This document shows positions 12,681 through 39,768 of a stretch of 48,321 nucleotides of DNA, piece by piece (position 1 is the stretch's first letter; every line of letters starts with the position of its first letter). The notes under the pieces are model-generated. The model had not been told where the DNA came from. It saw nothing but the letters and a program-made list of their open reading frames with translations, and searched no databases. Made by a program: the position numbers and the translations under genes. This stretch comes from a virus. The DNA is taken from IMG/VR virus record IMGVR_UViG_3300025030_000039, positions 380,878-429,198 of that record; one strand, 5' to 3'.

Positions 12681-12942
12681 ATTCTTTAAATGTGGGAGAA
12701 CACCCTAAATATATTGTATTTCTAATCATTTGCTTTTCATAATCTGCTAATCTTTTTTTATTAAAATTTGCTTCGATTATTTCATCACATCTTTTTTTAT
12801 CTATTGTATAATTTGTAAAGAAAAATTCTTGTTCTGTTTCTTTAGTTGCTACCATATTATCCCAATCTCCGACAGGATCTGTTTCTTTATAAAGATCTCT
12901 ATAAATATTTTCAATAATTATTAAAAGTTTTTTATCTCTCAT
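12673..12942 (-). CDS. hypothetical small protein (89 aa) between kdsB and kdsA
   Basis: ORF; not HAD-like, so not KdsC. Confidence 0.35.
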   Translation of the reverse strand: MRDKKLLIIIENIYRDLYKETDPVGDWDNMVATKETEQEFFFTNYTIDKKRCDEIIEANFNKKRLADYEKQMIRNTIYLGCSPTFKEYE

Positions 12943-15880: not shown

Positions 15881-15882
15881 AG

Positions 15883-17080: not shown

Positions 17081-17083
17081 ATT

Positions 17084-20568: not shown

Positions 20569-21185
20569 ATTAATGTAATATTATTTGCTTTATTTATATA
20601 TTTTGTAAAATATGTTTTTTCCACAATAGATGAATGACTTTTATGATAAATAGATCTAAATACATTTTTTTCATTTTGTTTAAAATTTTCAAAAAAATCA
20701 AATCCATATAAGTTTAATTCTAAAAAATTTATTCTAGTAACTAAAAAATTAAAAGTAGCAGCTCCAGTGGAAGGAATAAACATTATTTTAAAATCTTTTC
20801 TTCTAAATTCATCATAAAACTCTTTACTACATATATAAACGTTATTAAATAATTCTAAAAGTTTATTCTCTCTATCTGAATATCCAGTTTTCGACCATCT
20901 ACTTAATTGAAGAATATATTTAGCATTTGCAGCTTTACATAATCTAACAGCATTGGAAACAGTATTCATTTGTGGAACAAATATATGTGTTTTTTCTCCT
21001 AATGCATTTTTATATTTTGGTAATGCATCTATAGAATAATTTAATCTTATTATTATATCGTTTGAATCAATAGATTTTCCATTATTTTCATTTAATAATT
21101 TAGTTGAATTTCCAACCAAAGCTATTTTTTTTCCATTACAATATTCTTGTATTTTTTCTAAAGGAATAGATATATTTTTATTCAT
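20565..21185 (-). CDS. sialyltransferase-like glycosyltransferase (sialylmotif L- and S-like blocks; candidate CMP-ulosonic-acid transferase)
   Basis: KIALVGNSTKLL..G.SIDSNDIIIRLN (L-motif-like) and IPSTGAATFNFLV...LYGFDFF (S-motif-like). Confidence 0.45.
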   Translation of the reverse strand: MNKNISIPLEKIQEYCNGKKIALVGNSTKLLNENNGKSIDSNDIIIRLNYSIDALPKYKNALGEKTHIFVPQMNTVSNAVRLCKAANAKYILQLSRWSKTGYSDRENKLLELFNNVYICSKEFYDEFRRKDFKIMFIPSTGAATFNFLVTRINFLELNLYGFDFFENFKQNEKNVFRSIYHKSHSSIVEKTYFTKYINKANNITLM

Positions 21186-21260
21186 ATGGTAATACTTGGT
21201 AATAGCATATTTTAATTAATATGGTAAATTATATATTATTTATGCATACATCAAGATGCA

Positions 21261-21300
21261 TTATATAAACACCGAATGCTAACAATAATGTTAGCATTTG
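21261..21300 (-). terminator. rho-independent terminator after hsp20-like gene
   Basis: ccgaatgctaaca / tgttagcatttgg 13-bp stem (one G-U), loop ATAA, followed on minus RNA by UGUUUAUAUAAUG. Confidence 0.5.
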
Positions 21301-21324
21301 GAATATTTTAAATTTTAAGCTATA

Positions 21325-21681
21325 TTATAAAATTTTTACTTTCTTTGATTTTAGTTTTTCTTTTAAAGGACATTTAATACTTAAAACTCCATTTTTTATA
21401 GAAGCCTCTATATTATCTAAATCTACGTCCCCTTTTACTTTAAATTTCTTTTCAAATTTCTTTTTTAAACCTATTTCTTCTCCAGAGTAAGAAATTAAAA
21501 TAATATCACCTTCAGTTTTTAAATCTATATCCGATTTATCATATCCGGGAATAAGTACATCTAAAATATAATAATCATCTTCTTTTTTAACTTCATATGA
21601 AGGTGAAGTTATTGTATTTACACTTGTTAAAAGTGAATTAAATAATTCATTTGCTAAATCATTAAATGTTGTTGTTGTCAT
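21325..21681 (-). CDS. small heat-shock protein (Hsp20/alpha-crystallin family)
   Basis: YYILDVLIPGYDKSDIDL...GEEIGLKKKFEKKFKV...DNIEASIKNGVLSIKCP alpha-crystallin domain pattern. Confidence 0.6.
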   Translation of the reverse strand: MTTTTFNDLANELFNSLLTSVNTITSPSYEVKKEDDYYILDVLIPGYDKSDIDLKTEGDIILISYSGEEIGLKKKFEKKFKVKGDVDLDNIEASIKNGVLSIKCPLKEKLKSKKVKIL

Positions 21682-21780
21682 AATTTAAAATTTTTTATAT
21701 TAATTTATAAAATATATTCAAAAATTATACCAAAAGTATATTTTAATTTAAAAATGACTATTCGTCATATATTTGACAAA

Positions 21781-21824
21781 AATGACAAATTAAAATAGGA
21801 ATCTAGATTATAAATTCCTATTTT
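21781..21824 (-). terminator. rho-independent terminator after 21832..22089
   Basis: aaaataggaat (21792-21802) / attcctatttt (21814-21824) perfect 11-bp stem, 11-nt loop, minus RNA continues AAUUUGUCAUUUUUG. Confidence 0.5.
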
Positions 21825-21831
21825 AAAGTTA

Positions 21832-22089
21832 TTATGCTTGTACTTCAGCATTAACTACTGGAGTTGAAGCTTCTGCTTCTTTTCTTGGTTTAAATACTCT
21901 AACTGCTTTAGATACTAATTCAGCATCTTCTAACGAATATACACCAGCTTTTTGAGCAAGTGATGCTCCTTGAATTAAAATACCAATTGCTTGTTCTTGA
22001 GTTAACTCATCTTTAAAAGGATCAAATTGTTTTTCTTTACTTTCCATAATTTTAAAATTTTTATTTGTAATTACATTTATTATATGCAA
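21832..22089 (-). CDS. hypothetical small acidic protein (85 aa; may start at internal Met MESKEK)
   Basis: ORF with locally higher GC/codon quality; bracketed by terminator hairpin. Confidence 0.45.
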   Translation of the reverse strand: MHIINVITNKNFKIMESKEKQFDPFKDELTQEQAIGILIQGASLAQKAGVYSLEDAELVSKAVRVFKPRKEAEASTPVVNAEVQA

Positions 22090-22107
22090 ACCTAATTATA
22101 AGTTTCA

Positions 22108-23196
22108 TTAAATATTTTTAATTATTATTTTAGATATATATTCAACATCATTTTCAGTTAGTTCAGAATACATTGGTATAGCTAATACTTCTTTTGACAA
22201 ATTTAATGCAATTGGCATTTCTATATTTCCATAAAGTTTTTTAATTAATGTAAATTCTGAACATATAGGATAAAAATAAGGTCTACTTGATACATTTTTA
22301 ACTAATAAATCATTTTTAATTTTATCTCTATTTGGATGTTTAATTATCATATAGATATAATTATAATGAATATTTTTATTATCATATTTGGTAAATATTA
22401 TATCATTTGGAAGATATTTTTTATAAAACTCAAATACATTCTTTCTTTTTGATATTATTAAATCCAAATCATCTAATATACATAAACCCATAGATGCTTG
22501 AAATTCATTCATTTTACCGTTTGTTCCTGGATATATTACGTCATATTCTTCATTAAATCCAAAGTTACTGAATAGTTTAGATATTCTAAATATTTCTGGA
22601 TTATTAAATGTAATTAATCCTCCTTCTATTGTATGAAATACTTTTGTAGCATGAGTTGAAAAAACAGAAACATCTCCAAAATTACCTATACCAATATTAT
22701 TAATAGTAACTCCAAACATATGAGCTGAATCATATATTGTATACAAATCATATTTTTTAGCAATAATTTCTATCTTTTCTATATCTACAGGATTACCATA
22801 AATATGAACTGGTAATATAGCAGCTGTATTTTTTGTTATTTTTTCTTCTATTTTATTAATATCTATATTACCATCATTAATGTTAACATCAATAAATATA
22901 GGAATATTTCCAGAATTAATAATAGATGTTATGGTTGCAGCAAATGTAAAAGGAGTAGTTATTATTTCTTTTCCTTTTATTCCTAAAATAGAAATAGTAG
23001 CTTCTAAAGATGTTGTTCCATTTAAAAAAGGATACACATAATTTACACCTAAATAATTTTTAGCAGAATTAATATATTCATTATGAATAGGACCAAAATT
23101 AGTAAGCCAAGATTCTTTCCAAATTCTATTTAAATATTTAATATATTTCTTTTTATCAGGTAAATAAGGTTTAACTACAGGTATATGTTTTTTCAT
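22108..23196 (-). CDS. DegT/DnrJ/EryC1/StrS-family PLP-dependent sugar aminotransferase
   Basis: GTTSLEATISILGI.GKEIITTPFTFAAT...IPIFID...AILPVHIYGNP.D...DSAHMFG...STHATKVF (PLP-Lys) pattern. Confidence 0.6.
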   Translation of the reverse strand: MKKHIPVVKPYLPDKKKYIKYLNRIWKESWLTNFGPIHNEYINSAKNYLGVNYVYPFLNGTTSLEATISILGIKGKEIITTPFTFAATITSIINSGNIPIFIDVNINDGNIDINKIEEKITKNTAAILPVHIYGNPVDIEKIEIIAKKYDLYTIYDSAHMFGVTINNIGIGNFGDVSVFSTHATKVFHTIEGGLITFNNPEIFRISKLFSNFGFNEEYDVIYPGTNGKMNEFQASMGLCILDDLDLIISKRKNVFEFYKKYLPNDIIFTKYDNKNIHYNYIYMIIKHPNRDKIKNDLLVKNVSSRPYFYPICSEFTLIKKLYGNIEMPIALNLSKEVLAIPMYSELTENDVEYISKIIIKNI

Positions 23197-25556: not shown

Positions 25557-26288
25557 TTAATTTATTTTATATTTTTTATGATATTCAATAACTCCATTCA
25601 TAAAATCTTTAAAATATTTTTTAATTTCATTTTTTGAAACTGTAAATATTTGAGGAGTATAATCTTGTTCATTACTGATCCATATTTCTGCATGTGATGG
25701 TAATTTTCCAGTCATTTTATAGTATGCAACATAATAAGCTGAAAGTTGCATTTTATAATTATCTACCCATTCATATTGTTTAGGTTTTTTACTAGTTTTA
25801 AAATCACAAATAACGTGATTATCTAATGAATCTGCATATATTAAATCTACTCTACCGGCGTATCCTCCACCCATAAAATTATAAAGCATTTTTTCTTGGA
25901 TTATAACCTCTTTAACTTTATCAAATATTTGAGCATTATAAAAATTAAAAAATAATTTTCTTCCAACTTCTATTTCGTCTGGAGTAAATCCTTCATTAAT
26001 TCCCCATATTGAAGTTTTTTCTAAAGTATCTAAAAGCTTATCTTTTTTATTTTTTAAAGTACTACTTAAATAATTTTCATTAAACATGTGCATGCATGTT
26101 CCTCTATTTGCAGAAAATTTTGAAATAGCATTTGCCTTTTCTTCACCTATTCTTTTTTTCCAATCATCTAACCACTTGTCATCACTCATTGAACTTATTA
26201 TAGTTGTAACACTTGGTAAATAATTAATTTGGTCGTCAGTTTTTACTATATAGTGACGACCCCCATTTATTGTAACTGTATCAGACAT
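25557..26288 (-). CDS. PD-(D/E)XK-family nuclease-like protein
   Basis: GRVDLIY...VICDFKTSKK (D...D-x-K arrangement). Confidence 0.4.
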   Translation of the reverse strand: MSDTVTINGGRHYIVKTDDQINYLPSVTTIISSMSDDKWLDDWKKRIGEEKANAISKFSANRGTCMHMFNENYLSSTLKNKKDKLLDTLEKTSIWGINEGFTPDEIEVGRKLFFNFYNAQIFDKVKEVIIQEKMLYNFMGGGYAGRVDLIYADSLDNHVICDFKTSKKPKQYEWVDNYKMQLSAYYVAYYKMTGKLPSHAEIWISNEQDYTPQIFTVSKNEIKKYFKDFMNGVIEYHKKYKIN

Positions 26289-26724
26289 TCTTAAAAAATT
26301 GAGTAATATAATCTATAACATTATTATCTATTATAGCAGTTATTAAAAATTTAGAAATAAAAAATATAACTGTCCATAATATAGTATTAAATAATATTTT
26401 TCTAAAACTTATATAAAATCTGCTTCCTTCTAAAACTAATAAATATGAATCAGTTCCATCTATTTTTTCAAATGTCGGATATATTAATTCAGTTAAATTT
26501 AATTTTAAAAGTATTGCATCATAATCTCTTAATTTAGAAAGTACATATGACTCTTGAGATAATGGTTGAGATGCTATTTCTTCAGGCAAATTAATAACAG
26601 TATACATTCTTCCAAATGGATCAACTCTTATTTTATTTTCTTCTAAAAACTTTATATTTTTTTTTGTAGTCTTTTTTATAATTAACCAGTAATTAATTTC
26701 TTTAAATAAATTTATAAAATACAT
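26281..26724 (-). CDS. hypothetical protein, C-terminal TM segment
   Basis: ORF; LWTVIFFISKFLITAII hydrophobic. Confidence 0.35.
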   Translation of the reverse strand: MYFINLFKEINYWLIIKKTTKKNIKFLEENKIRVDPFGRMYTVINLPEEIASQPLSQESYVLSKLRDYDAILLKLNLTELIYPTFEKIDGTDSYLLVLEGSRFYISFRKILFNTILWTVIFFISKFLITAIIDNNVIDYITQFFKNV

Positions 26725-27296: not shown

Positions 27297-28058
27297 TTAC
27301 ACTAACTCTATTCCCATAATTTCTGATAATATTTTACGGCCTCTTGCTATTCTATTTTTAACTGTTTGTTCTGTAATCATATTCTTTTTAATTTCATCTC
27401 TTTCAGATTTAAGAGTATTAAATAAAGTTTTATCTCCATTCGTATATGCTACTTTTATTTTATCACATAAATCATTATATTTAGATTTATATTCTTCATT
27501 AAATTTTTCTTCTATTTGTCTATAACTTAAACCATTAAGGAATCGTTCTACCATTATACATTTATAAATAGGTTTTAAATTATGTATTGCATCTAGTAAT
27601 TTACTGTATTGATCATCTTTTTCATTTTGTTCTTTTTCATAATCACTATCATCTTTAATTTCATCAATATCATGTTCATAAAAATCTGTAAAATTTCTAT
27701 CTTTTTTACCAATTTCTGAATTATCAGTATTCTCACTAACTTCATATCCATATGATAAAGATACTCTTGAATTTCTTTCTCTTATAAATTGAATTGAATC
27801 ATGATATGCTATAGTATATAGCCAAGTAGTTATTTGATATGTTTTATCGTATTCATCAATTCTAGTATATAATTTAAACATTGTATTAGAAACCACGTCG
27901 TTCGCTGCATCTTCATCTTGAACTATTTTTAAAACATAATTTCTTATATTTGGATATATTTTTTCATATAAATTTTTAAATGCCTCATCACTACGAGTAG
28001 TATAAAATTCATTTGCTAATTCAGCATAAGTTACTTTTGATAAATCTAATTTTGCCAT
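27297..28058 (-). CDS. sigma-70-family RNA polymerase sigma factor (ECF/late-type), with an insertion inside the region-4 HTH
   Basis: region-2-like DVVSNTMFKLYTRIDEYD...ITTWLYTIAYHDSIQFIRERN and region-4-like LSYRQIEEKF...EQTVKNRIARGRKIL. Confidence 0.55.
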   Translation of the reverse strand: MAKLDLSKVTYAELANEFYTTRSDEAFKNLYEKIYPNIRNYVLKIVQDEDAANDVVSNTMFKLYTRIDEYDKTYQITTWLYTIAYHDSIQFIRERNSRVSLSYGYEVSENTDNSEIGKKDRNFTDFYEHDIDEIKDDSDYEKEQNEKDDQYSKLLDAIHNLKPIYKCIMVERFLNGLSYRQIEEKFNEEYKSKYNDLCDKIKVAYTNGDKTLFNTLKSERDEIKKNMITEQTVKNRIARGRKILSEIMGIELV

Positions 28059-28087: not shown

Positions 28088-28618
28088 TTATAACGTTTGT
28101 TTATATTCATTAATTAATTCTTTTATTGTATCTATTTCAACAGGAGCTAAATTCCAACAATCTGCGCATACATTAATTCTATTTTCATTTGCTTTATGCG
28201 GAAAATCTTTATAATTATGACCGTGAAAATGGAATATTCCATCTTCTTTTCCATTCCAGTATTCAAGAGGCCAATGACATAAAATAGCTTTTAATTTAGG
28301 TAATTCAATTATTTGATCATCATACATTTTTACATTATCATATAATTGAGCAGATTCTTTTAAAGCTTTATCTGTATTACCGTTTAAAAAATAAATTTTA
28401 CCTTTTAATTTGCCTAGCATAATATTTGCTATAAAAGGATCCCATGCAAAATTTCCTAAATGATAAACTATATCATTATCTTTAACTTTATCGTTCCATA
28501 ATTTAGTCATTTTTTCATCCATTTCTTCAACTGATTTAAATGGTCTTTTAGCATGATTAATAATGTTCTTACGACCAAACATCGTATCGGAAGTAAGAAA
28601 TATTTTAGTTTTACTCAT
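28088..28618 (-). CDS. calcineurin-like metallophosphoesterase
   Basis: FLTSDTMFG, GNFAWD, GNTD, HFHGHNY metal-ligand blocks. Confidence 0.55.
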   Translation of the reverse strand: MSKTKIFLTSDTMFGRKNIINHAKRPFKSVEEMDEKMTKLWNDKVKDNDIVYHLGNFAWDPFIANIMLGKLKGKIYFLNGNTDKALKESAQLYDNVKMYDDQIIELPKLKAILCHWPLEYWNGKEDGIFHFHGHNYKDFPHKANENRINVCADCWNLAPVEIDTIKELINEYKQTL

Positions 28619-28620
28619 AA

Positions 28621-29601
28621 TTATCCAAATAATTTAATTTTAATTTGTTTTTCAGGAGTATTTTCTCCATAATATTCATCATGCCAATCATTAACTAAAG
28701 AAAAATCAAATTTGTCAAAATAATCATGTATTTCGCGTTCTTGAAAATTAGATAATGAAGTTATTGATTTTTTAAACACTTGTTGTTTATAACTTTTATG
28801 CGTTATAACTAATGGCCATTTTTCTTGAAATAAATCATATTCTTTTTTTCTTATTTCCATTCTTCTATCTCCACCAATTGAACCTTTAGAATTATTAACA
28901 TTATCTAAAGTTTCAAACTTTCTTTTTCCGTCTTCAAAATTTATTGTTGACATCGGTATAGTATGCATAAATGAAAAATACCTACTAATAATTAAAGGTA
29001 AAAATTTATGAGATGCAACCTGCATAGTAAAATCTGTATCTGATCTAAAATTTTCAAATCTATTATCATAATTACATTTTTTAGCCACTTTAGTATTTAT
29101 TATTACTAATTGAGCAGGATTTGAATATAAATTTATATAATTCTTTTGTTGTTTAGAAAAATGATGTATACTAATAGATGGAACTGTAACTAATCCTATT
29201 CTATCTAAGTCTGTTTTCATAACATGTTCTAAAGCTAATAATGTAGGATTAGATTCAAAAGTTTGTGAATGTTTAACATCATCATCATGATGAATATAAT
29301 AATCTCCTAATGTACAACCCCAATCTTTAAGATATTTAAATGTATTAATTATACCCATTCTAGTTGGATACCATTTAAATTCAACTTGTTTAAATTTTTC
29401 AACTAAATATTTTTTATCTTCATCTGAATATTCTTGTCCTAACACATGAACATTTGTTGCATTATAATGTTTAAATAAATTATCTAAACATGCATCAATC
29501 ATTAACGTTTCTTTCTTATGTTTAGTATATCTTTTTAAAGATGGAATCATTATAACTCCATTATATTCAAATCTATCATTTATTTTATTAGACATAATCA
29601 A
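28621..29601 (-). CDS. hypothetical protein (326 aa)
   Basis: ORF; HHDDD acidic cluster could be a DxD but unsupported. Confidence 0.4.
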   Translation of the reverse strand: MIMSNKINDRFEYNGVIMIPSLKRYTKHKKETLMIDACLDNLFKHYNATNVHVLGQEYSDEDKKYLVEKFKQVEFKWYPTRMGIINTFKYLKDWGCTLGDYYIHHDDDVKHSQTFESNPTLLALEHVMKTDLDRIGLVTVPSISIHHFSKQQKNYINLYSNPAQLVIINTKVAKKCNYDNRFENFRSDTDFTMQVASHKFLPLIISRYFSFMHTIPMSTINFEDGKRKFETLDNVNNSKGSIGGDRRMEIRKKEYDLFQEKWPLVITHKSYKQQVFKKSITSLSNFQEREIHDYFDKFDFSLVNDWHDEYYGENTPEKQIKIKLFG

Positions 29602-29809
29602 TCAATATTTTAGTTTTATGTTTTAAATTAATTTCTTCTTCAAATGATCTATATTGAAACCAATAATCTCCAAAAGATTTTTCTTGACCTTCCTTCCAAT
29701 TCATTTCTATATGTATAATATCATTTATTTCATTTATATTTTTTATACACAATAAAGGATATTGTTTTACTAACTCTGATATATTTTCTATTAATTTATT
29801 ATTTTTCAT
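29588..29809 (-). CDS. hypothetical small protein (73 aa)
   Basis: ORF only. Confidence 0.3.
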   Translation of the reverse strand: MKNNKLIENISELVKQYPLLCIKNINEINDIIHIEMNWKEGQEKSFGDYWFQYRSFEEEINLKHKTKILIDYV

Positions 29810-30494
29810 CTTTAATCAGTTTAATAAATTCATTTATTCCTTCAGTTGCTTTACTTTCAATTTTATTTATATACGCATAACCACCTACATTAGGAGTAGG
29901 ATCAATATAATAAATAGGTTTTAAATCATTAACATATTGTAATAAAGTAGCAGCTGGATAAACTTGTAATGTTGTTCCAATAATTAAAAAAATATCAGCA
30001 GATTTAACAATATTCATAGCATCAGATAATAATGGAACACCCTCTCCAAACCAAACTACAGCTGGCCTATATTCATTTAATTTAGAATTAGATAATTCTA
30101 AATATCCTATATTTATCCATTTAGAATTATCCATATCATCTTCATATTTTCGTATTTTTCTTAATTCACCATGAAGATGTAATATGTTTTTACTACCAGC
30201 TCTTTCGTGTAAATCATCCACATTTTGTGTTATAATAAATACATTATAATCTTTTTCTAATTCAACTAATTTAATATGACATTCATTTGGATGTACATTT
30301 GCTAATTCAGCTCTTACCGAATTATAAAAGGAATTCATTTCTTCTCTAATAGAATTCCATCCATTAATAGATGCATAAACTTCTGGATCATATTTTTCCC
30401 AAAGTCCACCTTTATCTCGATATGTAGGAATTCCGCTTTCTTGTGAAACACCAGCTCCTGTAAATACTACTAAATTTTTCTTATTTTTTCCCAT
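29799..30494 (-). CDS. Sir2-family (sirtuin-like) NAD-binding protein lacking the zinc-ribbon module
   Basis: GAGVSQESGIPTYRDKGGLW, ITQNVDDLHERAG, HLHGEL, PAVVWFGE; no Cys pairs where CobB/Sir2 has the Zn ribbon. Confidence 0.55.
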   Translation of the reverse strand: MGKNKKNLVVFTGAGVSQESGIPTYRDKGGLWEKYDPEVYASINGWNSIREEMNSFYNSVRAELANVHPNECHIKLVELEKDYNVFIITQNVDDLHERAGSKNILHLHGELRKIRKYEDDMDNSKWINIGYLELSNSKLNEYRPAVVWFGEGVPLLSDAMNIVKSADIFLIIGTTLQVYPAATLLQYVNDLKPIYYIDPTPNVGGYAYINKIESKATEGINEFIKLIKDEK

Positions 30495-30792
30495 CTGCTA
30501 TTTTATATCTTGAAATTAATTTTTTATTTGGTAATACACAATCTTCAATTATAGCCGGTTCTCGTGTAGGAATAAACCAAGGAACCCATACATGTCCAGG
30601 TGTTTTTTCTTCAACGCTCATTTGCCAATCATTATATTCTTCATTTAAAAATATATTTATTTTTTCTATTTTATCTGAATATGTTTTTTTACAATATTCT
30701 ATAAAATCTTTAACAATAGGTTCTTGTACAAATATAAGATTTCCTTTAGGTAATTTAGGTAATTTTTCCATTTTATTAAAATAAATCTTCAA
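30481..30792 (-). CDS. hypothetical protein (103 aa)
   Basis: ORF only. Confidence 0.3.
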   Translation of the reverse strand: MKIYFNKMEKLPKLPKGNLIFVQEPIVKDFIEYCKKTYSDKIEKINIFLNEEYNDWQMSVEEKTPGHVWVPWFIPTREPAIIEDCVLPNKKLISRYKIADGKK

Positions 30793-32032
30793 TTATATTA
30801 TCTACCGATTTTGATTCAACTTTATTTTTTTTAGACTTTAAAGTTTTAATACTTTTTGTAACATCATGCACTTTATGTAATTCAATTTGAATTGGTGTAA
30901 CTTTATATTTTTCTTTATTGTCTCGTAATATATTAACCAATTCTTTAGAATATTCTTTATCATTAAAATTAACTGCTTTAAACTGTTCTTCTATTATTTG
31001 TTTTCTCATAGAAGGATTACTCTTTATAGCTTTTATTCTTTTTTCTACATCTTCTCTATTAGATACATAATTAAATTTTTGGCAAATATCTGAATGACCA
31101 AATACACGTTTAGTAGGATCTAATTCAATATCAATTAAAGTTATAACAGAAGCCCATATACTTTGATAACATCTCTGAGGCATATCTCTTCCTTCATACC
31201 ACTCATCGCCTATAACAACATGAGTATATGTATCATTAGATTTTTCCATATAATCTTTAGCATCAACTGACTTTCCATAAATAGGAGGTCTGGGATTACC
31301 ATTTTTAGAAGCAATATTTAATAAATCTTCTGAATTTATTTTTCCAAACATTTCAACATTTATACTATCAGAATATCCAAAATAATATTTAACCATTTTT
31401 TTAATTCTTCTATTACCTCGCATTGTCCCTCCATATATTAAATCATAATTTGGTTTATCATTCATGGATAACGGATTATCAAGACATGGAAATTTTTCGA
31501 ATGGAAAATGAATAACATCTGCTACTTGTATTTCTGTTTTAGAAATAACTTCTCTAACATCATCTAATTTATATGGCTGTGAAATATATATTATATCATT
31601 TCGTGTTATTTCAATATCTTCTTGTTTATAATTAGAACTCCATTCTTTTCCTTTAATTGATCCCCAAGTTTGTCTTAATACTAATGCTGGATCACAATAA
31701 ATATAATAAATTTGACCGACAAATTTATTAATAATGAAATAATTTAAAATTTGATCCCTAGATTCAGCACCACCAAAATAATTTATGGTTCCGTTCAATA
31801 TAATTAATGCATCATATTTTCTATCATTAATTTTATCAAAATTATCTTCAATATTATAAAAATTAAATGTATTTGGATTATTATCTTTTGCTAAAATTTT
31901 TGTATAAATATCTATTTTTGCCCCACCTCTATGTAGAGTTTCAATTATATATCTAGCCTCATAATTTCCACCAGATGTATCTCTAGCATCCCATGCTATC
32001 CTAGAACCTATTTTAATTACTGCTATTTTCAT
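30776..32032 (-). CDS. bgt-like: DNA beta-glucosyltransferase homolog (T4 BGT-like, GT63-type)
   Basis: recalled T4 BGT blocks align along the length: MKIAVIKIG/MKIAIINMG, DALIILNGTINYFGG/DRLIVVNSSINFFGG, QIYYIYCD/KIYYLFTD, YDLIYGGTMRGNRRIKKMV/LDVIYGGSFRSGQRESKMV, VVIGDEWYEG...IWASVITLIDIELD/LIIGDKNYND...TMASDAVMLIDEEFD. Confidence 0.6.
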   Translation of the reverse strand: MKIAVIKIGSRIAWDARDTSGGNYEARYIIETLHRGGAKIDIYTKILAKDNNPNTFNFYNIEDNFDKINDRKYDALIILNGTINYFGGAESRDQILNYFIINKFVGQIYYIYCDPALVLRQTWGSIKGKEWSSNYKQEDIEITRNDIIYISQPYKLDDVREVISKTEIQVADVIHFPFEKFPCLDNPLSMNDKPNYDLIYGGTMRGNRRIKKMVKYYFGYSDSINVEMFGKINSEDLLNIASKNGNPRPPIYGKSVDAKDYMEKSNDTYTHVVIGDEWYEGRDMPQRCYQSIWASVITLIDIELDPTKRVFGHSDICQKFNYVSNREDVEKRIKAIKSNPSMRKQIIEEQFKAVNFNDKEYSKELVNILRDNKEKYKVTPIQIELHKVHDVTKSIKTLKSKKNKVESKSVDNIIEDLF

Positions 32033-32951: not shown

Positions 32952-33455
32952 TTAAAAAATTTTGTTTTGTTTTATTTTATTATTGTTTTTATTATCTAAA
33001 TATATTATATCTATATCAAAAGGTGATACATAATATTTATTTATTTTATAATCAGCATATTTAACTTTGTTTATTTGATAATATATTTTAATATTTGAAT
33101 TATTTTCTAATGTATACCAAATATATTTAACAGATTTATTATTTAATCTGAATTCTTGTCTTTCTTTTATTTTTAAATGATTTTTATCGAATTCAATATA
33201 TGGTCCATGATCACCTATAACTATTCTATTATATCCTATTACAAAAACTTCTTTGTTAAAAATTAATAAATTATTTTCAGAAATATTTTGAAATTTATAA
33301 TATTTATCTAAATATTTTTTATAAATATTTCTTATTATTTGACTATCAATATTATCTAAACAATTATAATTTCCTCTATTAATATTTTCCCAATAAAAAT
33401 TCCAAACTTCTAATTCTTTATTATCTTTAATTTCTTTTAATATAAAATTATACAT
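32952..33455 (-). CDS. hypothetical protein (167 aa)
   Basis: ORF; 8-nt overlap with hydroxymethylase gene. Confidence 0.4.
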   Translation of the reverse strand: MYNFILKEIKDNKELEVWNFYWENINRGNYNCLDNIDSQIIRNIYKKYLDKYYKFQNISENNLLIFNKEVFVIGYNRIVIGDHGPYIEFDKNHLKIKERQEFRLNNKSVKYIWYTLENNSNIKIYYQINKVKYADYKINKYYVSPFDIDIIYLDNKNNNKIKQNKIF

Positions 33456-34329
33456 TACTTTTTATATTTGTATAAATCCAATTAAATAATTTATCTTCAC
33501 TTATAAATAATTTATCTTCTAATATACATGAAGTTAAATATTTAAATACAGAACTCATTTTACCTTTATTATCTATTATATTTAAATCTATTAATGGTAA
33601 TTCTAAAGGTACAAAAGGATGCGCTAACATTTCATTAATGAGTTCAAAATTTCGTTGATATATGTGAAGTGAATTATCTATATGTGTATATTTTCCAAGT
33701 TGTAAATCATGATATTTATCTTCCTTAAGAAGTTTAAACATTTGTTGATGTAATAAAGTAAAAAACGCTATATCAGTTGGTAAACCTAATATAGCATCGT
33801 TTGACCGCATTTCAACAGTAAAATCTAATTTATTATCTCTAATATGAAATATACCTGTTAGTGTACATACAAAATCTTTATTACCTTCAAATTGATGATC
33901 TGGTGTATTAAAATGCATTATAGCTTGTCTTGTATCTTTATCAGATATTAATGAATCATAAGCCCATTCCCATTGATTTTTATTATGTTCATTTACTCTA
34001 TTAAATAATAAATATCCATAAGCACTATTAACAGTTAATCCATCAGGATTAACTATTTGATTCCAAAATTTTGCGTATTTTGATATAAATTCTATAGTAT
34101 TATAACCATTAAAATACCATATTAATTCCGCGGAAATATATTGTAATTGACTGCCTCTTCTTTCATTTTTATATAATGCTGACAATGGATTTGTTATTTC
34201 AATAGATACATTAATATCTTCATTTACATTTTGACCTCTTGGAGATGTAATATATTGAGGATTATAATACAAATCAACTAATATTTTTTTATATGCTAAA
34301 GCAAATGTCTGTTCAGTATAAGTTTTCAT
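33448..34329 (-). CDS. thymidylate-synthase-superfamily dNMP hydroxymethylase, cytosine-type (T4 gp42 dCMP hydroxymethylase-like)
   Basis: DFVCTLTGIFHIR (catalytic Cys block, cf. gp42 DFMCTNTVQYLIR) and VEMRSNDAILGLPTDIAFF (cf. gp42 MRSNDVVFGFRNDYAW; Asp at the position that is Asn in thymidylate synthase PFNIASY). Confidence 0.6.
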   Translation of the reverse strand: MKTYTEQTFALAYKKILVDLYYNPQYITSPRGQNVNEDINVSIEITNPLSALYKNERRGSQLQYISAELIWYFNGYNTIEFISKYAKFWNQIVNPDGLTVNSAYGYLLFNRVNEHNKNQWEWAYDSLISDKDTRQAIMHFNTPDHQFEGNKDFVCTLTGIFHIRDNKLDFTVEMRSNDAILGLPTDIAFFTLLHQQMFKLLKEDKYHDLQLGKYTHIDNSLHIYQRNFELINEMLAHPFVPLELPLIDLNIIDNKGKMSSVFKYLTSCILEDKLFISEDKLFNWIYTNIKSNV

Positions 34330-34965
34330 TACTGATTAGCTTTTAATATTATATTTTTTATTTGATTATTAATTTCTTCAGGTGTATGATTAGAAACATT
34401 TATAAGATATTTATGATAAATTTTACTTTTATTAAAAGCTTCTTCAAATGCTTCTTTTTCTATTTTAACTTCTTCTACATTTTTATAAAATGATAAACCA
34501 TCATCTCTTTTAAGAATTGTTTCTGGATCATTTACAAATACAAACATAAATAAATTATCTTTTAATTCATTTACATATTGTTTTTCTATATCTAAAATAT
34601 AATCACCAGAATATTTTCTATATAAAGGAGCATATACCAATTCTCCTAAATGACTCCTATCAAAAATATAATTATAAGAATTATTAGAAAACAAATCTGA
34701 TGACATTTTATTATTTATACTTTCTATCATCATTGTAAACATTTGATTGTATAAAGTAGTAGAATAATTTATATGTTCTTCGTCTTTATTGAAAGGTAAT
34801 CCACTATAATGAAATGTTTGAAATACATTTCCTTTTCCTAAAATATCAGAAGCTTGTATAAGTTTTATTTGAGTTCCTTTACCTGTATTGTACTCAGTCT
34901 GGCCCTTCCATAATAATATGCAATGGAAGGGCCAGATTTTTAATTTTATTTTTTATTTTGTTCAT
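34329..34965 (-). CDS. thymidylate/nucleoside-monophosphate-kinase-like gene interrupted by a frame change (N-terminal 23 codons in one frame ending at TGA 34894-34896; remainder in +1 frame)
   Basis: frame A: MNKIKNKIKNLALPLHIIMEGPD* (hhhEGxD as in TMK IVIEGLDG); frame +1 continues TEYNTGKGTQIKLI...IFDRSHLGELVY (GKGTQ and DRS lid-like motifs) through the annotated ORF 34329..34742. Confidence 0.4.
34901..34932 (-). promoter_or_regulatory. GC-rich perfect 11-bp inverted repeat (ggcccttccat/atggaagggcc, 10-nt loop) immediately 5' (mRNA sense) of the frame-breaking TGA; candidate recoding/bypass or terminator-like structure
   Basis: direct reading; perfect complementarity; on the plus strand followed by a T-rich run (agatttttaattttattttttattttg). 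Confidence 0.45.
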
Positions 34966-34991
34966 ATTTTAAATATTTTTCTTGTGTTATT

Positions 34992-35609
34992 TTATCGAAT
35001 ATTATTAATTTCTGCTTTATTATCAATAAAGGATTCTATAGTACCCTTATTTTTTTCTTCTTTAACGTTTTCTTCTACTAAAATTAAGTCTCTATAATTA
35101 GGATATCTTTTAATTAAAATTTCTAACATTTTAATATCATTATGTTCTCTTATTTCTTCTGATTTTAATTTTTTTATTTTTTCTTCTTCAATATGAGCTA
35201 ACTCAACCTCTTTTCTAAGAAGTTCTATAACTTTCCAATCTTTATGTGTTTTAATTAAAACATCTGCATTTTCATGATTATGAATTAATTCAATATTAAA
35301 ATAAAGTTCTTTAATATTAGAATTTAAAGTATTATAACTTGATTGTAATGGTAAAAATTGTGATAAATATTTATTAATATCTATATCAGCATATAAATCT
35401 ATATTTAATTCATTAATTACATTATATTTAATAATATAAAAAGAATATTCATAATAAGCTAATTTATTTTGGTTTTCTATTTCAGTTAATAAAATATTAA
35501 TAATTTCTTCAACATTTGAACCTTTTATTACAATTTCATTATCATAAAATTTAGTATATCCTTTTAATTGAAATTCACTCTTGTAATTTAATGCTAATTT
35601 ATTTTCCAT
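34992..35609 (-). CDS. hypothetical protein (205 aa)
   Basis: ORF only. Confidence 0.4.
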   Translation of the reverse strand: MENKLALNYKSEFQLKGYTKFYDNEIVIKGSNVEEIINILLTEIENQNKLAYYEYSFYIIKYNVINELNIDLYADIDINKYLSQFLPLQSSYNTLNSNIKELYFNIELIHNHENADVLIKTHKDWKVIELLRKEVELAHIEEEKIKKLKSEEIREHNDIKMLEILIKRYPNYRDLILVEENVKEEKNKGTIESFIDNKAEINNIR

Positions 35610-35656
35610 AATTTTTATTAATTTTATTATATTATATGCACAATATTATATTTTGT

Positions 35657-35950
35657 TTAAATTTTATTAAATAATTTTTCAATTATTAATTCCGTTTCTT
35701 TTATATCGTCTTCAGTAGGTATAGGAACAATATTAACTTCAAAGATTGGACCTTTTTCTACTTTTCCATTATCTATTATTTTGCCCATCGCTCTTAATGA
35801 TATATTTAAAGTTTGTCCAAATTTTTCCTTTATTTCATTAAACAATGAGTTGTTAGTAATTTTAAAATTTATTAGTGTATTATTACTTTCATCAAATTCA
35901 GTCCAGCCGACAATCTGTTCTATATATTTAACAGGTACTAATCCGTTCAT
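35657..35950 (-). CDS. hypothetical protein (97 aa)
   Basis: ORF only. Confidence 0.35.
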   Translation of the reverse strand: MNGLVPVKYIEQIVGWTEFDESNNTLINFKITNNSLFNEIKEKFGQTLNISLRAMGKIIDNGKVEKGPIFEVNIVPIPTEDDIKETELIIEKLFNKI

Positions 35951-35951
35951 C

Positions 35952-36698
35952 TTATTTTATATTATTGAAATAATTATTAATTTCATTTAATTCACTTTCA
36001 GTATTAAAACTTTTTGTTAAAAATTTATCATCTAATATTAATAAATGAGCAGGTTCATTTATATTCCATAAATAATGAACAATATCTAAAAATATTAATT
36101 CTTTATTTATATACTTTCCATTTTTATCTAAAACATTATGAGCAGTTAATAAATGATTATAAAAATTATTATTTATCACAAATATAGATTGATCGTGATA
36201 TCCATCCGAAATTTTATCACCTCTTTTACTAAACATTGCTTGTTCTGCTTTATTGTCTGAAAATTTAAACCATACATACGGATTTTTTTCATATATTACA
36301 GGTATAGTAAGACTAGTAGTAGTTTTAATATTTGATATATTTTCAAACAATTCTTTATTTGAAAAATAAGTATCTCCCCAACAAATAGAAATATTATCAT
36401 ATACATTAGTATCTATAAATCCTAATGTTTCTAATATTGCATGCCCACAACCTCTTCCTGATTTAATAGGTATTAAATGTATTTTATCATCTAAATCTAT
36501 ATAATTATGTATAACTTCTTTATAAAGATCAAAATTTGTATGATTAGAGGCAATTATAATTTGATCATAAAATTCATAAGCATTTTCTATAGTATGCAAT
36601 AAATTTGGTTTACCGTTTATTAAAGATATCGCTTTAGGCAAATATCCCATTCTTGAACTGTCACCAGCCGCTATTATAAGTAATACTTTTTTATTCAT
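35952..36698 (-). CDS. IspD/TarI-family sugar(alditol)-phosphate cytidylyltransferase-like protein
   Basis: LLIIAAGDSSRMGYLPKAISLINGKPNLLH matches the AAGxGxRMG..PKQ...L.G.P glycine-rich loop of IspD/TarI/MobA-like NTP transferases. Confidence 0.5.
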   Translation of the reverse strand: MNKKVLLIIAAGDSSRMGYLPKAISLINGKPNLLHTIENAYEFYDQIIIASNHTNFDLYKEVIHNYIDLDDKIHLIPIKSGRGCGHAILETLGFIDTNVYDNISICWGDTYFSNKELFENISNIKTTTSLTIPVIYEKNPYVWFKFSDNKAEQAMFSKRGDKISDGYHDQSIFVINNNFYNHLLTAHNVLDKNGKYINKELIFLDIVHYLWNINEPAHLLILDDKFLTKSFNTESELNEINNYFNNIK

Positions 36699-37929: not shown

Positions 37930-39768
37930 TTACGAAATTAATTTTAAAAGTTTCAATGTATCATGTGGATTATTGACATCATATACAATAGTTGTTTTAA
38001 CTTCTCTAAATACTGAATCGTTTCCTTTTTCTAATTCATCTCCGACGAATAAAATTGATGCGTCTTTAAATCTATTATATTCAAATATAACTAATTTACT
38101 ATATCCTTTATGCATTATGTCTATAGTAGATCTTCCATTTAATTTAATTTCATATTTATCTCCAATTAATACTTCTAAATCTTTCGCCTTTATTATTCTT
38201 TCATTTTCTTTAAATCGTCTAAATGAAATAATCACATTATTTCTATTTTCAAATTTATATACTGGTATATTACATTTAACTGCAGCATTATAAATTTCAT
38301 TAATTTGATCATTTGTTAATACATATTTATTAGTTAAGTAATGCGAAAAAATATATTCTCTTTTCTTATTATCCCATACACATTTACTATTTCCACCATC
38401 ACAAAATAACTCGTTTTTATAATCACCAGAAGTATTACAATATTTTTTAAGTTGTTTATTAATGTGCTCAACAGAATTACCAGTTAAAATTGAAAATTCT
38501 GGATTTTTATATATTATTTCTAGATTATGTCTAGATTCGTTAATAAATGAATCCTCGTATCTAGATACTAAAGTACCATCAAAATCAAATATAATTTTAT
38601 CTTTATTAATTAATTCTGTATAATAATTTCTAATAATTATTTTGGCTAAAAGATCACCATTATGTACACTTGCAATAGTTAGAGAATAAGGATCATTAAT
38701 AATATCTTCTGTTATAATATCATTAGTTAAAGCAGTTTCAATATATTTAAAAGAAGGATCAATTTTTCGCATACTTTCATGAGCATTAGAATTAACTATA
38801 GTTATTATGTCTTCTAATGGAAGATATTTATTTAGAATATGTTGCATTTGACCAGCATTTATGCCTTTCATATCGCTATCTTGTACATTATTCATAATTA
38901 AAAATTTTAAAGCTTTTGATTCTTTAATAATTTTTTTGAAGTCTTTATGTTTATAAGTAGGTATTAAAGAGGACCACTGTGTACCAGGTCCAAAAGTTAT
39001 GATATCTGCTTCTTTAATTTTTTCTAAAACTTCATTAGAAATTTCGGGAATTACTTCTTCATTTTTATTATTTACCAATCTAATATCTACTATAGGATCA
39101 TCTTCATTATCCCATTTAACAATAATTGCTTCATCTAATAGTAATTTACCAGATTTAGTAAATGCTTGTAAATATAAACTAACATCTGATATTAATAATA
39201 CTCTATCTTCAAGTATTCTAAATACCTCTTTAGCCATTATCTTACCAGCAGTCGCTAATGAAAAATTATTCAATCCAGCTAAACCTGCATATATCATGTT
39301 AGCAATAGAAAAATTATTAAATGATATTAAATCTATATTCCTTTGAGAAAAGAAACTATCTACAGCAGGATTAATTATATTATCTAAAATATTTAAATTT
39401 AATGTTTTATCTTCTTCATTAAATGAACAATTATTAATAATTTCTTTTTTTATTTCTAATAACATTTCATTAATATGATTAAAACTAGCATCTTTAGAAT
39501 TTAAATCTATTCTTTTAAATAAAAAACCTTTAATTAAATTAGCAAGTGGACTATTATCGATAAATCCATATGCGTATTCTTGATTTTTTCTTAAATCTGA
39601 AGGTCCTAATATTTTACCATCATAATTTTTTCTAACTTCTCCTGTTGATAATCCATTATCATAACAATTAGTTATTAAAGTTAAAGTTAAATCTTTATCA
39701 AGAAGTCTATCTAATCCATTTTGTAGAGTTATTGTACCTCCACCACCTGTAAATGATACTATTTTCAT
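37930..39768 (-). CDS. CofD/YvcK (UPF0052, 2-phospho-L-lactate transferase-like) domain fused to a C-terminal HAD-like hydrolase domain
   Basis: N-terminal KIVSFTGGGGTITLQNGL...LTLITNCYDNGLSTGEVRKNYDGKILGPSDLRKN parallels YvcK/CofD GGGTG..LL.GL...ITAIVTVADDGGSSGRLR..GI.PPGDIRN; residues ~395-405 KIIFDFDGTLV = HAD motif I. Confidence 0.5.
   Translation of the reverse strand: MKIVSFTGGGGTITLQNGLDRLLDKDLTLTLITNCYDNGLSTGEVRKNYDGKILGPSDLRKNQEYAYGFIDNSPLANLIKGFLFKRIDLNSKDASFNHINEMLLEIKKEIINNCSFNEEDKTLNLNILDNIINPAVDSFFSQRNIDLISFNNFSIANMIYAGLAGLNNFSLATAGKIMAKEVFRILEDRVLLISDVSLYLQAFTKSGKLLLDEAIIVKWDNEDDPIVDIRLVNNKNEEVIPEISNEVLEKIKEADIITFGPGTQWSSLIPTYKHKDFKKIIKESKALKFLIMNNVQDSDMKGINAGQMQHILNKYLPLEDIITIVNSNAHESMRKIDPSFKYIETALTNDIITEDIINDPYSLTIASVHNGDLLAKIIIRNYYTELINKDKIIFDFDGTLVSRYEDSFINESRHNLEIIYKNPEFSILTGNSVEHINKQLKKYCNTSGDYKNELFCDGGNSKCVWDNKKREYIFSHYLTNKYVLTNDQINEIYNAAVKCNIPVYKFENRNNVIISFRRFKENERIIKAKDLEVLIGDKYEIKLNGRSTIDIMHKGYSKLVIFEYNRFKDASILFVGDELEKGNDSVFREVKTTIVYDVNNPHDTLKLLKLIS

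Follow-up and report, generated by a model that had tools for sequence, protein, structure and literature searches.

The window analysed here, a stretch of 48,321 nucleotides from the virus record IMGVR_UViG_3300025030_000039, carries a sirtuin gene in the vicinity of DNA-modification genes, and the encoded protein lacks the zinc-binding cysteines of deacylase sirtuins. Does this loss place the protein among the SIR2 enzymes of defence and counter-defence, as the original prediction had suggested, or does the gene encode a protein lysine deacylase? The gene (29799..30494, minus strand, as are all window features given below with coordinates) starts with an ATG and encodes a single-domain, CobB-type (class III-like) protein of 231 aa from a cysteine-less, Bacteroidota-type subfamily of sirtuins. 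At 27%, its GC content differs little from the 23% of the phage, which argues that it is not a recent passenger.

The SIR2 family of Pfam (PF02146) matches the protein over its whole profile (positions 1-180 of 180; E=9.3e-38, 130 bits for a cut-off of 24), and PHROG 2162 ('Sir2') matches it with E=2e-47; such values put the sirtuin match far beyond chance. PF02146 was the sole Pfam family detected at E<=0.01, SIR2_2 being absent, and the PADLOC defence models gave no match to the sirtuin or to three of its neighbours, even at E<=1. A comparison with SIR2 family profiles, of the kind that the original prediction had called for, returned the classical family alone, a result that goes against a defence-type reading. 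The CobB/deacylase models of NCBIfam score under their curated cut-offs (179 bits versus 243 for the best one, NF001753; 171 versus 320 for NF040867), and the window sirtuin is a homologue without equivalog status in the curated NCBIfam CobB subfamilies (NF040867, NF001752 and others).

The AlphaFold (AF2) model of the protein (pLDDT 93.8, pTM 0.90) was aligned by Foldseek over nearly the whole chain (about 233-237 columns, TM 0.85-0.87) with Sir2-Af1 and CobB, including CobB-peptide complexes. Identity with E. coli CobB and the Archaeoglobus Sir2-Af1 (1s5p, 6rxq, 1ici, 1m2h) is 33-36%, with identical catalytic and tunnel residues, and the best solved relatives of the window sirtuin (Sir2-Af1, Sir2-Af2, E. 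coli CobB and SIRT5) are deacylases. By its full-length profile and its fold, the window protein is a member of the classical sirtuin family (PF02146; CobB/Sir2Af/SIRT5-like).

The sirtuin NAD-binding motifs had been read as intact, and this reading holds for an open reading frame with exactly the predicted limits. The glycine-rich motif GAGVS, which binds the NAD pyrophosphate (aa 13-17, 30444..30458), is followed by GIPTYR (aa 21-26), by the QNVD motif of the nicotinamide-ribose (C) pocket (aa 90-93, 30216..30227, within QNVDDLH at aa 90-96) and by HLHG, which contains the catalytic His108 (30171..30173). The latter is invariant in every alignment, whether with E. coli CobB or with phage sirtuins. 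Further downstream, FGE (aa 149-151), GTT (aa 173-175) and VYP (aa 178-180; together 29955..30050) contain residues of the acyl-lysine tunnel and of NAD binding that correspond to those of CobB, in which the equivalents of F149, V178, Y179 and P180 (F190, V219, Y220 and P221) form the acetyl-lysine tunnel (PMC5107563). Thirteen positions involved in NAD binding, catalysis or the acyl-lysine tunnel, namely G13, G15, S17, R26, Q90, N91, D93, H108, F149, V178, Y179, P180 and D198, are invariant across 60 relatives. The signatures of the family (GAGxS, QN(V/I)D, the His in HG, and FGE with the V-Y-P tunnel) are thus all found in the window sirtuin.

The Y-x-x-R pair that characterises class III desuccinylases/demalonylases, such as SIRT5 and E. 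coli CobB, is incomplete. At this acyl-carboxylate site (Y57-N-S-V60-R61, 30312..30326), alignment with CobB shows that Y57 is kept and that V60 occupies the place of R95. Position 60 is an arginine in 51 of the 60 relatives and hydrophobic in nine; in the same alignment, the arginine of YxxR has been lost from the window copy and from four other members of its clade (see below). Both Y92 and R95 of CobB are required for desuccinylation and de-2-hydroxyisobutyrylation (PMC6636992). With a valine in place of the arginine by which succinyl, malonyl and 2-hydroxyisobutyryl groups are recognised, the window sirtuin is likely to favour acetyl groups or other acyl groups without a charge. It differs in this respect from E. 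coli CobB and Sir2-Af1 (class III/U), which have the Y..R pair for succinyl-lysine and a structural zinc held by cysteines, whereas the window protein has neither the arginine nor the cysteines.

The absence of the zinc-binding module, also foreseen in the original prediction, is real, in a protein whose identity as a sirtuin is firm (PF02146, PHROG 2162). The small-module insert (aa 109-148, 30051..30170), which is the site of the Cys4 zinc in other sirtuins, reads ...KWINIGYLELSNSKLNEYRP and contains no cysteine, the only one in the protein being C72, in 'NECH'. Between His108 and the RPAVVWFGE strand, the region of the zinc ligands in E. coli CobB (RCSQ...DKCHCC) and in other sirtuins, no cysteine is found, and the insert is modelled by AF2 at a block-mean pLDDT of about 89-97.

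Many defence-associated SIR2 NADases have no zinc ribbon, and the missing cysteines had been taken as a pointer to NADases or ADP-ribosyltransferases of this kind. Comparison with the relatives of the window sirtuin does not support such a link. In all of the best 120 homologues, among them chromosomal genes of Myroides, Winogradskyella, Polaribacter, Flavobacterium, Muribaculaceae and Bacteroidales, the small module has 0-1 Cys or could not be parsed; among the best 149 representatives after clustering at 50%, two cysteines at most were counted in 113 of the 121 parsable modules. A small module without these cysteines is common to a large and mainly cellular subfamily, of which the housekeeping sirtuin of Bacteroidota is typical. 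A four-Cys zinc site is not required for membership of this subfamily, since the CobB protein of P. gingivalis and 113 of 121 parsable representative relatives do not have one. The lack of the zinc site in phage Sir2/CobB proteins has already been reported for KVP40 and phiSt2 (Skliros et al., 2016; PMC5107563); in two sirtuin surveys, we found no mention of cysteine-less sirtuins of Bacteroidota. The defence SIR2 NADases (ThsA, DSR1/2, SIR2-HerA, SIR2-APAZ/pAgo) have in common with the window protein the Rossmann-type NAD-binding sirtuin superfamily, but they belong to a different family (SIR2_2-like) and are multi-domain or work with partner genes, and none of their models matched the window sirtuin. 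They carry a fused sensor or an adjacent HerA, TIR or pAgo gene, whereas the window sirtuin is a single domain of 231 aa without such a neighbour.

The closest cellular relatives (~50% identity) are chromosomal "NAD-dependent deacylases" of Bacteroidota encoded by single-copy-type genes, a Flavisolibacter locus among them. The CobB protein of P. gingivalis (PGN_0004), which deacetylates RprY in vitro in a NAD-dependent manner (PMC6032018), is 47% identical to the window sirtuin over the full length. Its sequence was recovered from metagenome contigs via a qPCR primer; the published cobB cloning primer found nothing in the genome contigs, and a degenerate version of it matched Flavisolibacter alone. 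Both proteins are single-domain and similar in length (231 aa in the window, 234 aa in P. gingivalis); they agree in their NAD, His, FGE and VYP residues and lack a Cys4 zinc site, the module of the P. gingivalis protein containing one Cys. The window sirtuin differs in being phage-encoded, in having TYRD for TFRD and Val for Arg in YxxR, and in its small module, which reads W-I-N-I-G-Y...Y-R-P versus ...GD.(C)..G.QLRP in typical cellular forms. The tyrosine of TYRD, located in the cofactor loop, replaces phenylalanine in the phage clade (12 of the 60 sequences).

In a neighbour-joining (NJ) tree, the window sirtuin falls within this clade of 12 sequences (87% bootstrap), among Bacteroidota-type sequences. 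The eight contexts of the clade that we examined all look phage-like and AT-rich, and several of the contigs are hundreds of kb long; its maintenance in at least eight distinct phage-like contexts therefore indicates selection for function. The Sir2/CobB proteins of KVP40-, T5-, rV5- and GAP32-like phages (PHROG 2162) are likewise phage-borne, single-domain PF02146 proteins without zinc cysteines, and their small module, like that of the window sirtuin, includes a '..(I/V)D(I/V)GY..' strand. However, they are only 31-41% identical to it, and in the NJ tree they group apart from it on a long branch of their own, a separation that is provisional as the deep nodes are weakly supported. In the T5 and rV5 types the VYP region is remodelled (NTVINF..FP segment), whereas the window sirtuin keeps V-Y-P. 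Assignment of the window sirtuin to the T5/KVP40-type clade via the 'IDIGY' motif was considered and rejected, as cellular sirtuins and further phage types contain this motif too and the clades stand apart in the tree.

The DNA-modification genes reported near the sirtuin are confirmed. One encodes a T4 beta-glucosyltransferase-like protein of 418 aa (30776..32032; PF09198, E=7e-23; PHROG 7922, E=2e-52) and the other a thymidylate-synthase-fold enzyme of 293 aa (33448..34329; PF00303, E=1e-18; PHROGs 160 and 5131), a candidate pyrimidine hydroxymethylase or thymidylate synthase (TS) that scores far under the NCBIfam TS cut-offs. The neighbours of the sirtuin are the glucosyltransferase, two small ORFs that flank it, as had been noted, and lie on the same strand, a 326-aa protein and a phosphoesterase. 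The upstream small ORF (30481..30792; 103 aa from a TTG, 96 aa in the public gene call, which fits an ATG at 30771) overlaps the Sir2 start by 14 nt and encodes a conserved phage protein, with no match in Pfam, PHROG, PADLOC or NCBIfam. It has five homologues, of which only that of the closest relative (locus L026, 56% identity) is located immediately upstream of Sir2; no sirtuin is found near three of the four others in their contexts, and a role as a dedicated or obligate Sir2 partner was rejected on these grounds. The putative downstream ORF (29588..29809, 73 aa), an ORF call alone, overlaps the Sir2 stop by 11 nt, has one sub-threshold Pfam match (EcoRV, 16 bits versus a cut-off of 25) and has no homologue in the related loci. 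The phosphoesterase, two genes downstream of the sirtuin (28088..28618, 176 aa; PHROG 547 'phosphoesterase', E=2e-35), is 27% identical (E=2e-11) to ORF80 of rV5, which adjoins the RNA ligase gene and is separated by about 1.8 kb from the rV5 sirtuin, encoded on the other strand.

A search for a conserved operon by tblastn and all-against-all BLASTP of the ORFs of 14 related loci found the sirtuin alone in common, apart from the upstream small ORF, which L026 also has, and the phosphoesterase, which is distantly similar to that of rV5. Neither an acetyltransferase nor an obvious substrate gene is linked to the sirtuin. Between 27.0 and 34.5 kb, a sigma-70 scan was uninformative (68 promoter-like sites versus 76.6 expected from shuffles) and a scan for intrinsic terminators detected none on the coding strand.

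NAD salvage and RNA-repair genes are present in the 462-kb genome, none of them within 30 kb of the sirtuin. On the record, the sirtuin is located at 148 kb, RNA ligase, cREC and nucleotidyltransferase-like genes at 25-36 kb, and a gene encoding a bona fide KptA/Tpt1 at 82 kb. The sole Macro-like gene, with a weak Macro domain (18929-19708 of the record), is about 128 kb from the sirtuin and a NADAR gene about 34 kb from it; a NAMPT was not detected in the genome. Neighbourhoods with RNA ligase, Nudix and NAD salvage genes, as in other phage sirtuins, are not reproduced around the window gene. In GAP32, for example, Sir2 is flanked by genes annotated as 'RNA ligase' (148 aa) and Nudix and by genes of NAD salvage, which encode NAMPT and an NMNAT/Nudix enzyme. 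Among the relatives of the window sirtuin, four of the five contexts with long flanks contain NAD/ADP-ribose or RNA-repair genes within 7 kb. The types found near clade relatives are KptA (L020), NADAR with DNA ligase (L018), cREC with RNA ligase (L004) and an NMNAT-like gene, and a CTP_transf_like gene is linked to the sirtuin in L001, L012 and L013. For such a gene to occur in four of five 14-kb contexts, we infer p~0.01, a rough and uncalibrated estimate on the assumption that these genes have the density of the window phage, one per ~58 kb.

We consider it fairly probable that the window gene encodes a catalytically competent CobB-type sirtuin, i.e., a NAD-dependent protein lysine deacetylase/deacylase acting during infection. 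Such an enzyme would remove acyl groups from protein lysines with NAD+, releasing nicotinamide and O-acyl-ADP-ribose. It may be produced during infection along with the neighbouring same-strand genes, and could then deacylate host and/or phage proteins, resetting their activity. Of the two functions initially put forward, the deacylase matches and the P. gingivalis CobB favour a protein-modifying enzyme; the anti-defence NAD effector gained no support, and the flanking ORFs do not form a conserved set. Our preference for a deacylase remains a measured one, given the CobB equivalog scores under cut-off, the TYRD loop, the NAD/RNA-repair gene neighbours in relatives and the lack of a linked acetyltransferase or substrate gene. 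It is from neighbourhoods of NAD/ADP-ribose and RNA-repair genes that Iyer et al. argue that phage sirtuins have a role other than deacylation (PMC9503650).

The role in question is RNA repair, proposed for most phage sirtuins (PMC9503650, section 3.7.3). In this hypothesis of Iyer, Burroughs and Aravind, the sirtuin would transfer ADP-ribose from NAD+ to the 2'-phosphate of a cleaved tRNA or mRNA, in a KptA/Tpt1-like manner, and would heal, with phosphoesterases, cREC, Nudix and RNA ligase, the RNAs cut by host anticodon nucleases. The phosphoesterase two genes downstream, as a homologue of the one near the RNA-ligase-sirtuin cluster of rV5, is consistent with such a role, as are the genes near the relatives L004, L020 and L018 (with the rough p~0.01 given above) and the 'RNA ligase' and Nudix genes of GAP32. 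We nevertheless regard RNA repair as unlikely for the window sirtuin. In the NJ tree, the protein nests with cellular deacylases of Bacteroidota, outside the clade of the proposal, both for the T5, rV5, KVP40 and GAP32 sirtuins and, provisionally, for the 'RNA-repair' clade of Iyer et al. (2022), with its T5, rV5, Serratia phage BF and SP15 types; it also keeps the V-Y-P tunnel of CobB in place of the rearranged segment of rV5/T5-like proteins. Of the neighbourhood typical of the proposal (RNA ligase, cREC, 2H, Nudix, HAD and calcineurin-like phosphoesterase), only the phosphoesterase is found at the window sirtuin, the RNA ligase, cREC and KptA genes being 65-120 kb away; some of its clade relatives do have neighbours of these types. 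Moreover, the genome encodes a genuine KptA/Tpt1, which would make the activity redundant and leaves no need for the sirtuin to stand in for KptA.

It is also conceivable, if quite improbable, that the phage clade derives from a Bacteroidota deacylase which took on a new function within a NAD/ADP-ribose toolkit of the phages, serving counter-defence rather than acting as a housekeeping-type deacetylase. In concert with the products of the KptA, NADAR, cREC, RNA-ligase and NMNAT-like genes that lie repeatedly within a few kb of the sirtuin in relatives, its members might, for instance, attach ADP-ribose to a non-protein or immune-signalling substrate or remove a modification from it. The sequence features that could hint at such a change are the cofactor-loop Tyr, the W-x-D/N-I-G-Y small module and the loss of the YxxR Arg in five members.

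A protein (or DNA) mono-ADP-ribosyltransferase modifying a host factor, like SirTM or the side activities of SIRT4/6, seems very unlikely. Sirtuin chemistry permits ADP-ribosyl transfer (PMC9503650), and the NADAR and weak Macro domain proteins of the genome could reverse or process ADP-ribose adducts, but neither gene is adjacent to the sirtuin, whereas SirTM forms an operon with a Macro domain gene. In addition, the acyl-lysine-binding residues and the catalytic His are all canonical, and the closest characterised relative is a deacetylase. Finally, a NAD+-consuming or NAD-metabolic (anti-)defence effector, which would be a NADase of the ThsA, DSR or SIR2-HerA kind or else act on NAD-depleting host immunity as a decoy or modulator, seems likewise very unlikely: the protein is indeed a phage-borne NAD-using enzyme, and NAD salvage genes accompany the sirtuin in related phages (GAP32; L001, L012 and L013), but it resembles neither SIR2_2 nor the defence SIR2 models of PADLOC, it lacks both a sensor domain and a HerA, pAgo or TIR partner, its cysteine-less trait is common to housekeeping enzymes, no NAMPT was detected in the phage genome, and an unregulated NADase would harm the replication of the phage itself.

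About a thousand phage records have a CobB-type sirtuin in their annotation, and published suggestions for what these proteins do range from activating acetyl-CoA synthetase to repairing RNA. A lack of zinc cysteines does not mark out NADase-type SIR2 domains, as these cysteines are missing from a whole, largely Bacteroidota subfamily. Because this cysteine-less housekeeping subfamily includes an active deacetylase, the loss of these cysteines should not be used to flag enzymes of defence or counter-defence. The window sirtuin, a small, well-behaved and confidently modelled protein with canonical acyl-lysine residues, would provide a convenient test case for the functions proposed for phage sirtuins.

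The window matches LR756500.1 (positions 118150-166470) exactly, a record corresponding to a 462-kb uncultured 'huge phage' genome with 24% G+C, and all of its called genes lie on the minus strand. The protein of 231 aa encoded at 29799-30494 (minus strand) aligns to the full length of the classical-sirtuin profile PF02146 (positions 1-180 of 180; E=9.3e-38) and hits PHROG 2162, 'Sir2 (NAD-dependent deacetylase)' (E=2e-47); no other Pfam family was detected in it at E<=0.01. The sirtuin motifs quoted in the original prediction are present, and the zinc-binding cysteines are indeed missing: the only cysteine is C72, and none occurs between HLHG and RPAVVWFGE, the segment that holds the structural zinc in other sirtuins, among them E. 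coli CobB (RCSQ...DKCHCC). The NCBIfam CobB and deacylase models match strongly, yet under their curated cut-offs, so the protein is a diverged homologue and not an equivalog. Among proteins of known structure, those most similar in sequence are Sir2-Af1, Sir2-Af2, E. coli CobB and SIRT5 (E=1e-37 to 1e-25). An AlphaFold2 model built from an alignment of 60 relatives (pLDDT 93.8, pTM 0.90; block means of ~89-97 in the small module) superposes on Sir2-Af1 and CobB-peptide complexes with TM-scores of 0.85-0.87 across ~234 columns, which puts the Rossmann and small domains both in place.

Sequence comparisons indicate that the missing zinc cysteines are a trait of the whole subfamily and not a peculiarity of the phage protein. 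Its 120 best homologues among 5.8 billion proteins are of equal length (~47-67% identity) and carry zero or one cysteine in the module (residues 109-148) in every parsable case; those with names are chromosomal genes of Bacteroidota (Myroides, Winogradskyella, Polaribacter, Flavobacterium, Joostella, Muribaculaceae and Bacteroidales) with NAD-dependent deacylase annotations. When 1.84 billion cluster representatives were searched exhaustively with HMMER, 263 relatives emerged at E<=1e-30; among the best 149 of them, 121 were parsable, with at most two module cysteines in 113 and at least three in eight, the latter placed near the bottom of the ranking. The module of a chromosomal sirtuin of Flavisolibacter has no cysteine at all. 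In P. gingivalis, CobB (PGN_0004) deacetylates RprY in vitro in a strictly NAD+-dependent manner (PMC6032018). We retrieved its gene from metagenome contigs via the qPCR primer of that study, the termini of the product being consistent with the published cloning primers at both the N- and C-terminal ends; it has one cysteine in the module and shares 47% identity with the phage protein over its full length. Together with the subfamily counts, this makes a cysteine-less module consistent with an ordinary deacetylase. That the Sir2/CobB proteins of phages KVP40 and phiSt2 lack a zinc site was already pointed out in 2016 by Skliros et al. (PMC5107563).

Thirteen positions are invariant across the 60 relatives (G13, G15, S17, R26, Q90, N91, D93, H108, F149, V178, Y179, P180 and D198), including NAD-binding, catalytic and acyl-lysine-tunnel residues as described for CobB (PMC5107563). 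The Phe of the cofactor loop is replaced by Tyr (TYRD) in the clade of the phage protein (12/60 relatives). Val60 occupies the position of R95 of E. coli CobB, from the class III Y-x-x-R pair; this position is Arg in 51 of the 60 relatives and hydrophobic in nine. In CobB, Y92 and R95 are reported to be required for desuccinylation, and the R95 equivalent for de-2-hydroxyisobutyrylation (PMC6636992); Val60 thus suggests that the enzyme prefers uncharged acyl groups such as acetyl, with probably lower activity on succinyl-type groups.

By tblastn, sirtuin homologues were detected in 1019 phage records, from T5-like, rV5-like, KVP40-like, jumbo and other phages. A bootstrapped NJ tree places the window protein in a clade of 12 sequences (P0001-P0009, P0011, P0013 and P0015; 87% support) among cysteine-less Bacteroidota-type sequences, with weak deep support, and the sirtuins of T5, rV5, KVP40 and GAP32, likewise cysteine-less, form a separate long branch; those of RsoM2USA and LR756511 retain CxxC...CxxC. 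Eight clade contexts were examined, the window and those of seven relatives; AT-rich throughout (23-33% G+C), they combine dense small unannotated ORFs with phage-type genes, two contigs reaching 263-425 kb; the window sirtuin gene itself has 27% G+C, near that of its phage. Clade member P0008 is labelled 'Candidatus Pacearchaeota archaeon' (public bin) at NCBI; its contigs of 263-425 kb (L004-L006) carry phage-like content (RNA ligase, cREC, numerous small ORFs) and probably derive from a mis-binned huge phage. The record 'Acinetobacter phage MD-2021a' (CAKLQH020000011.1) is evidently a bacterial chromosome contig despite its title (sstT, msbA, gcvH, cobB), on which a cysteine-poor CobB adjoins the lipoyl-protein gene gcvH. 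In one relative (L001-L003), a 143-aa GGDEF-domain ORF (7573-8004) overlaps the sirtuin gene start; c-di-GMP is reported to act as an inhibitory ligand of E. coli CobB (bioRxiv 10.1101/362293), and the overlap may be a coincidence. Upstream of the 62 window gene starts the sequence is A/T-rich and has no Shine-Dalgarno signal, with the motif at 4/62 starts versus a background of 7.9%; Bacteroidota ribosomes do not use this signal (PMC9976891). Such starts, and the kinship of the sirtuin to those of Bacteroidota, hint at a Bacteroidota host.

Downstream from 32032, all on the minus strand, a T4 beta-glucosyltransferase-like gene (30776-32032) is followed by a small ORF (30481-30792), the sirtuin gene, a 73-aa ORF (29588-29809), a 326-aa ORF of unknown product (28621-29601), a phosphoesterase (28088-28618) and a sigma factor (27297-28058). 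Starts and stops overlap along this run and no terminator-like site was found within it on that strand, which makes co-transcription plausible. The upstream ORF, called mechanically with a TTG start (103 aa), overlaps the glucosyltransferase stop; the public call of 96 aa fits a start at the ATG at 30771, from which the two genes no longer overlap. With five homologues, it is by sequence conservation a real gene. It adjoins the sirtuin gene in the closest relative only and occurs on three other contigs without one, and no relatives of the 73-aa ORF were detected in the loci examined; thus, the flanking ORFs define no system. On one phage contig (L029, 5348-6300), a homologue of the upstream ORF is found two genes away from one with a Macro domain, with no sirtuin within 6 kb. 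The tie of the sirtuin to the glucosyltransferase and to a thymidylate-synthase-fold gene is one of proximity alone.

Elsewhere on the minus strand of the window, a long series of sugar/capsule-type biosynthesis genes (10747-23196) encodes a KdsD/KpsF-like SIS-domain isomerase, a CMP-KDO-synthetase-like CTP_transf_3, a KDO-8-P-synthase-like DAHP_synth_1, two SAM methyltransferases, a polysaccharide pyruvyl transferase, a GT2, a sulfotransferase, a KpsS-like Capsule_synth, an 836-aa GT1, a GT29 sialyltransferase-like protein and a DegT aminotransferase, which could decorate virion, host surface or DNA with glycans. A topoisomerase II A-subunit gene (45000-47722) appears interrupted: the DNA_topoisoIV N-terminus with an intein-splicing N-part (47183-47722) is separated by a DUF7487/DUF7479 match (46229-47131) from the intein C-part and the remainder of DNA_topoisoIV (45000-46232). 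The arrangement resembles either a split gene or an intein accompanied by an endonuclease-like ORF, inserted or free-standing. Unusually for a phage, a 612-aa protein (37930-39768) joins a CofD-like 2-phospho-L-lactate transferase domain to a phosphomannomutase-like C-terminus.

Iyer, Burroughs, Anantharaman and Aravind proposed an RNA-repair role for most phage sirtuins, by KptA-like 2'-phosphate removal, from neighbourhoods with RNA ligase, cREC, 2H, Nudix, and HAD or calcineurin-like phosphoesterases (PMC9503650). A homologue of the window phosphoesterase lies near the rV5 RNA-ligase-sirtuin cluster, and within 7 kb of other sirtuins of the window protein's clade we found cREC and RNA ligase (L004), KptA (L020), NADAR and DNA ligase (L018), or a CTP_transf_like nucleotidyltransferase with CoaE (L001; the pairing recurs in L012 and L013). 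LR756500.1 (L033-L035) also carries a scattered NAD/ADP-ribose and RNA-repair toolkit between 18929 and 114221 in record coordinates: a weak Macro domain (18929-19708), an RNA ligase with an N-terminal HNH-like region (25610-26704), cREC (34141-34458), a 386-aa CTP_transf_like protein (34850-36010), an NMNAT-like plus NUDIX protein (47604-48515), CoaE (61508-62227), KptA/Tpt1 (81897-82457) and NADAR (113745-114221); NAMPT was not found in this record. However, these genes are distant from the sirtuin, which lies at 148 kb of the record; from nearest to farthest, NADAR lies at 113.7 kb, KptA at 81.9 kb, NMNAT-like/NUDIX at 47.6 kb, CTP_transf_like at 34.9 kb, cREC at 34.1 kb and RNA ligase at 25.6 kb. 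Moreover, with a genuine KptA in the genome (PF01885, E=2e-47) no substitute is needed, and the window protein keeps the peptide-lysine tunnel, which is remodelled in the T5 and rV5 types. A role in RNA repair is thus unlikely; the recurrent linkage would also suit a plain deacylase within an NAD-economy gene set, with NAD supply and ADP-ribose clean-up genes travelling together.

Protein ADP-ribosylation by this sirtuin appears very improbable. Least probable is the NADase or anti-defence enzyme that the original prediction derived from the cysteine loss, a loss shared by the subfamily of PGN_0004; PADLOC defence models gave no match to the protein at E<=1. As judged from its sequence, the gene encodes an intact CobB-type sirtuin, probably catalytically active, that belongs to the Bacteroidota subfamily without zinc cysteines and occurs in a clade of large AT-rich phages. 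We favour, with some reserve, a function during infection as an NAD-dependent lysine deacetylase or deacylase of proteins.
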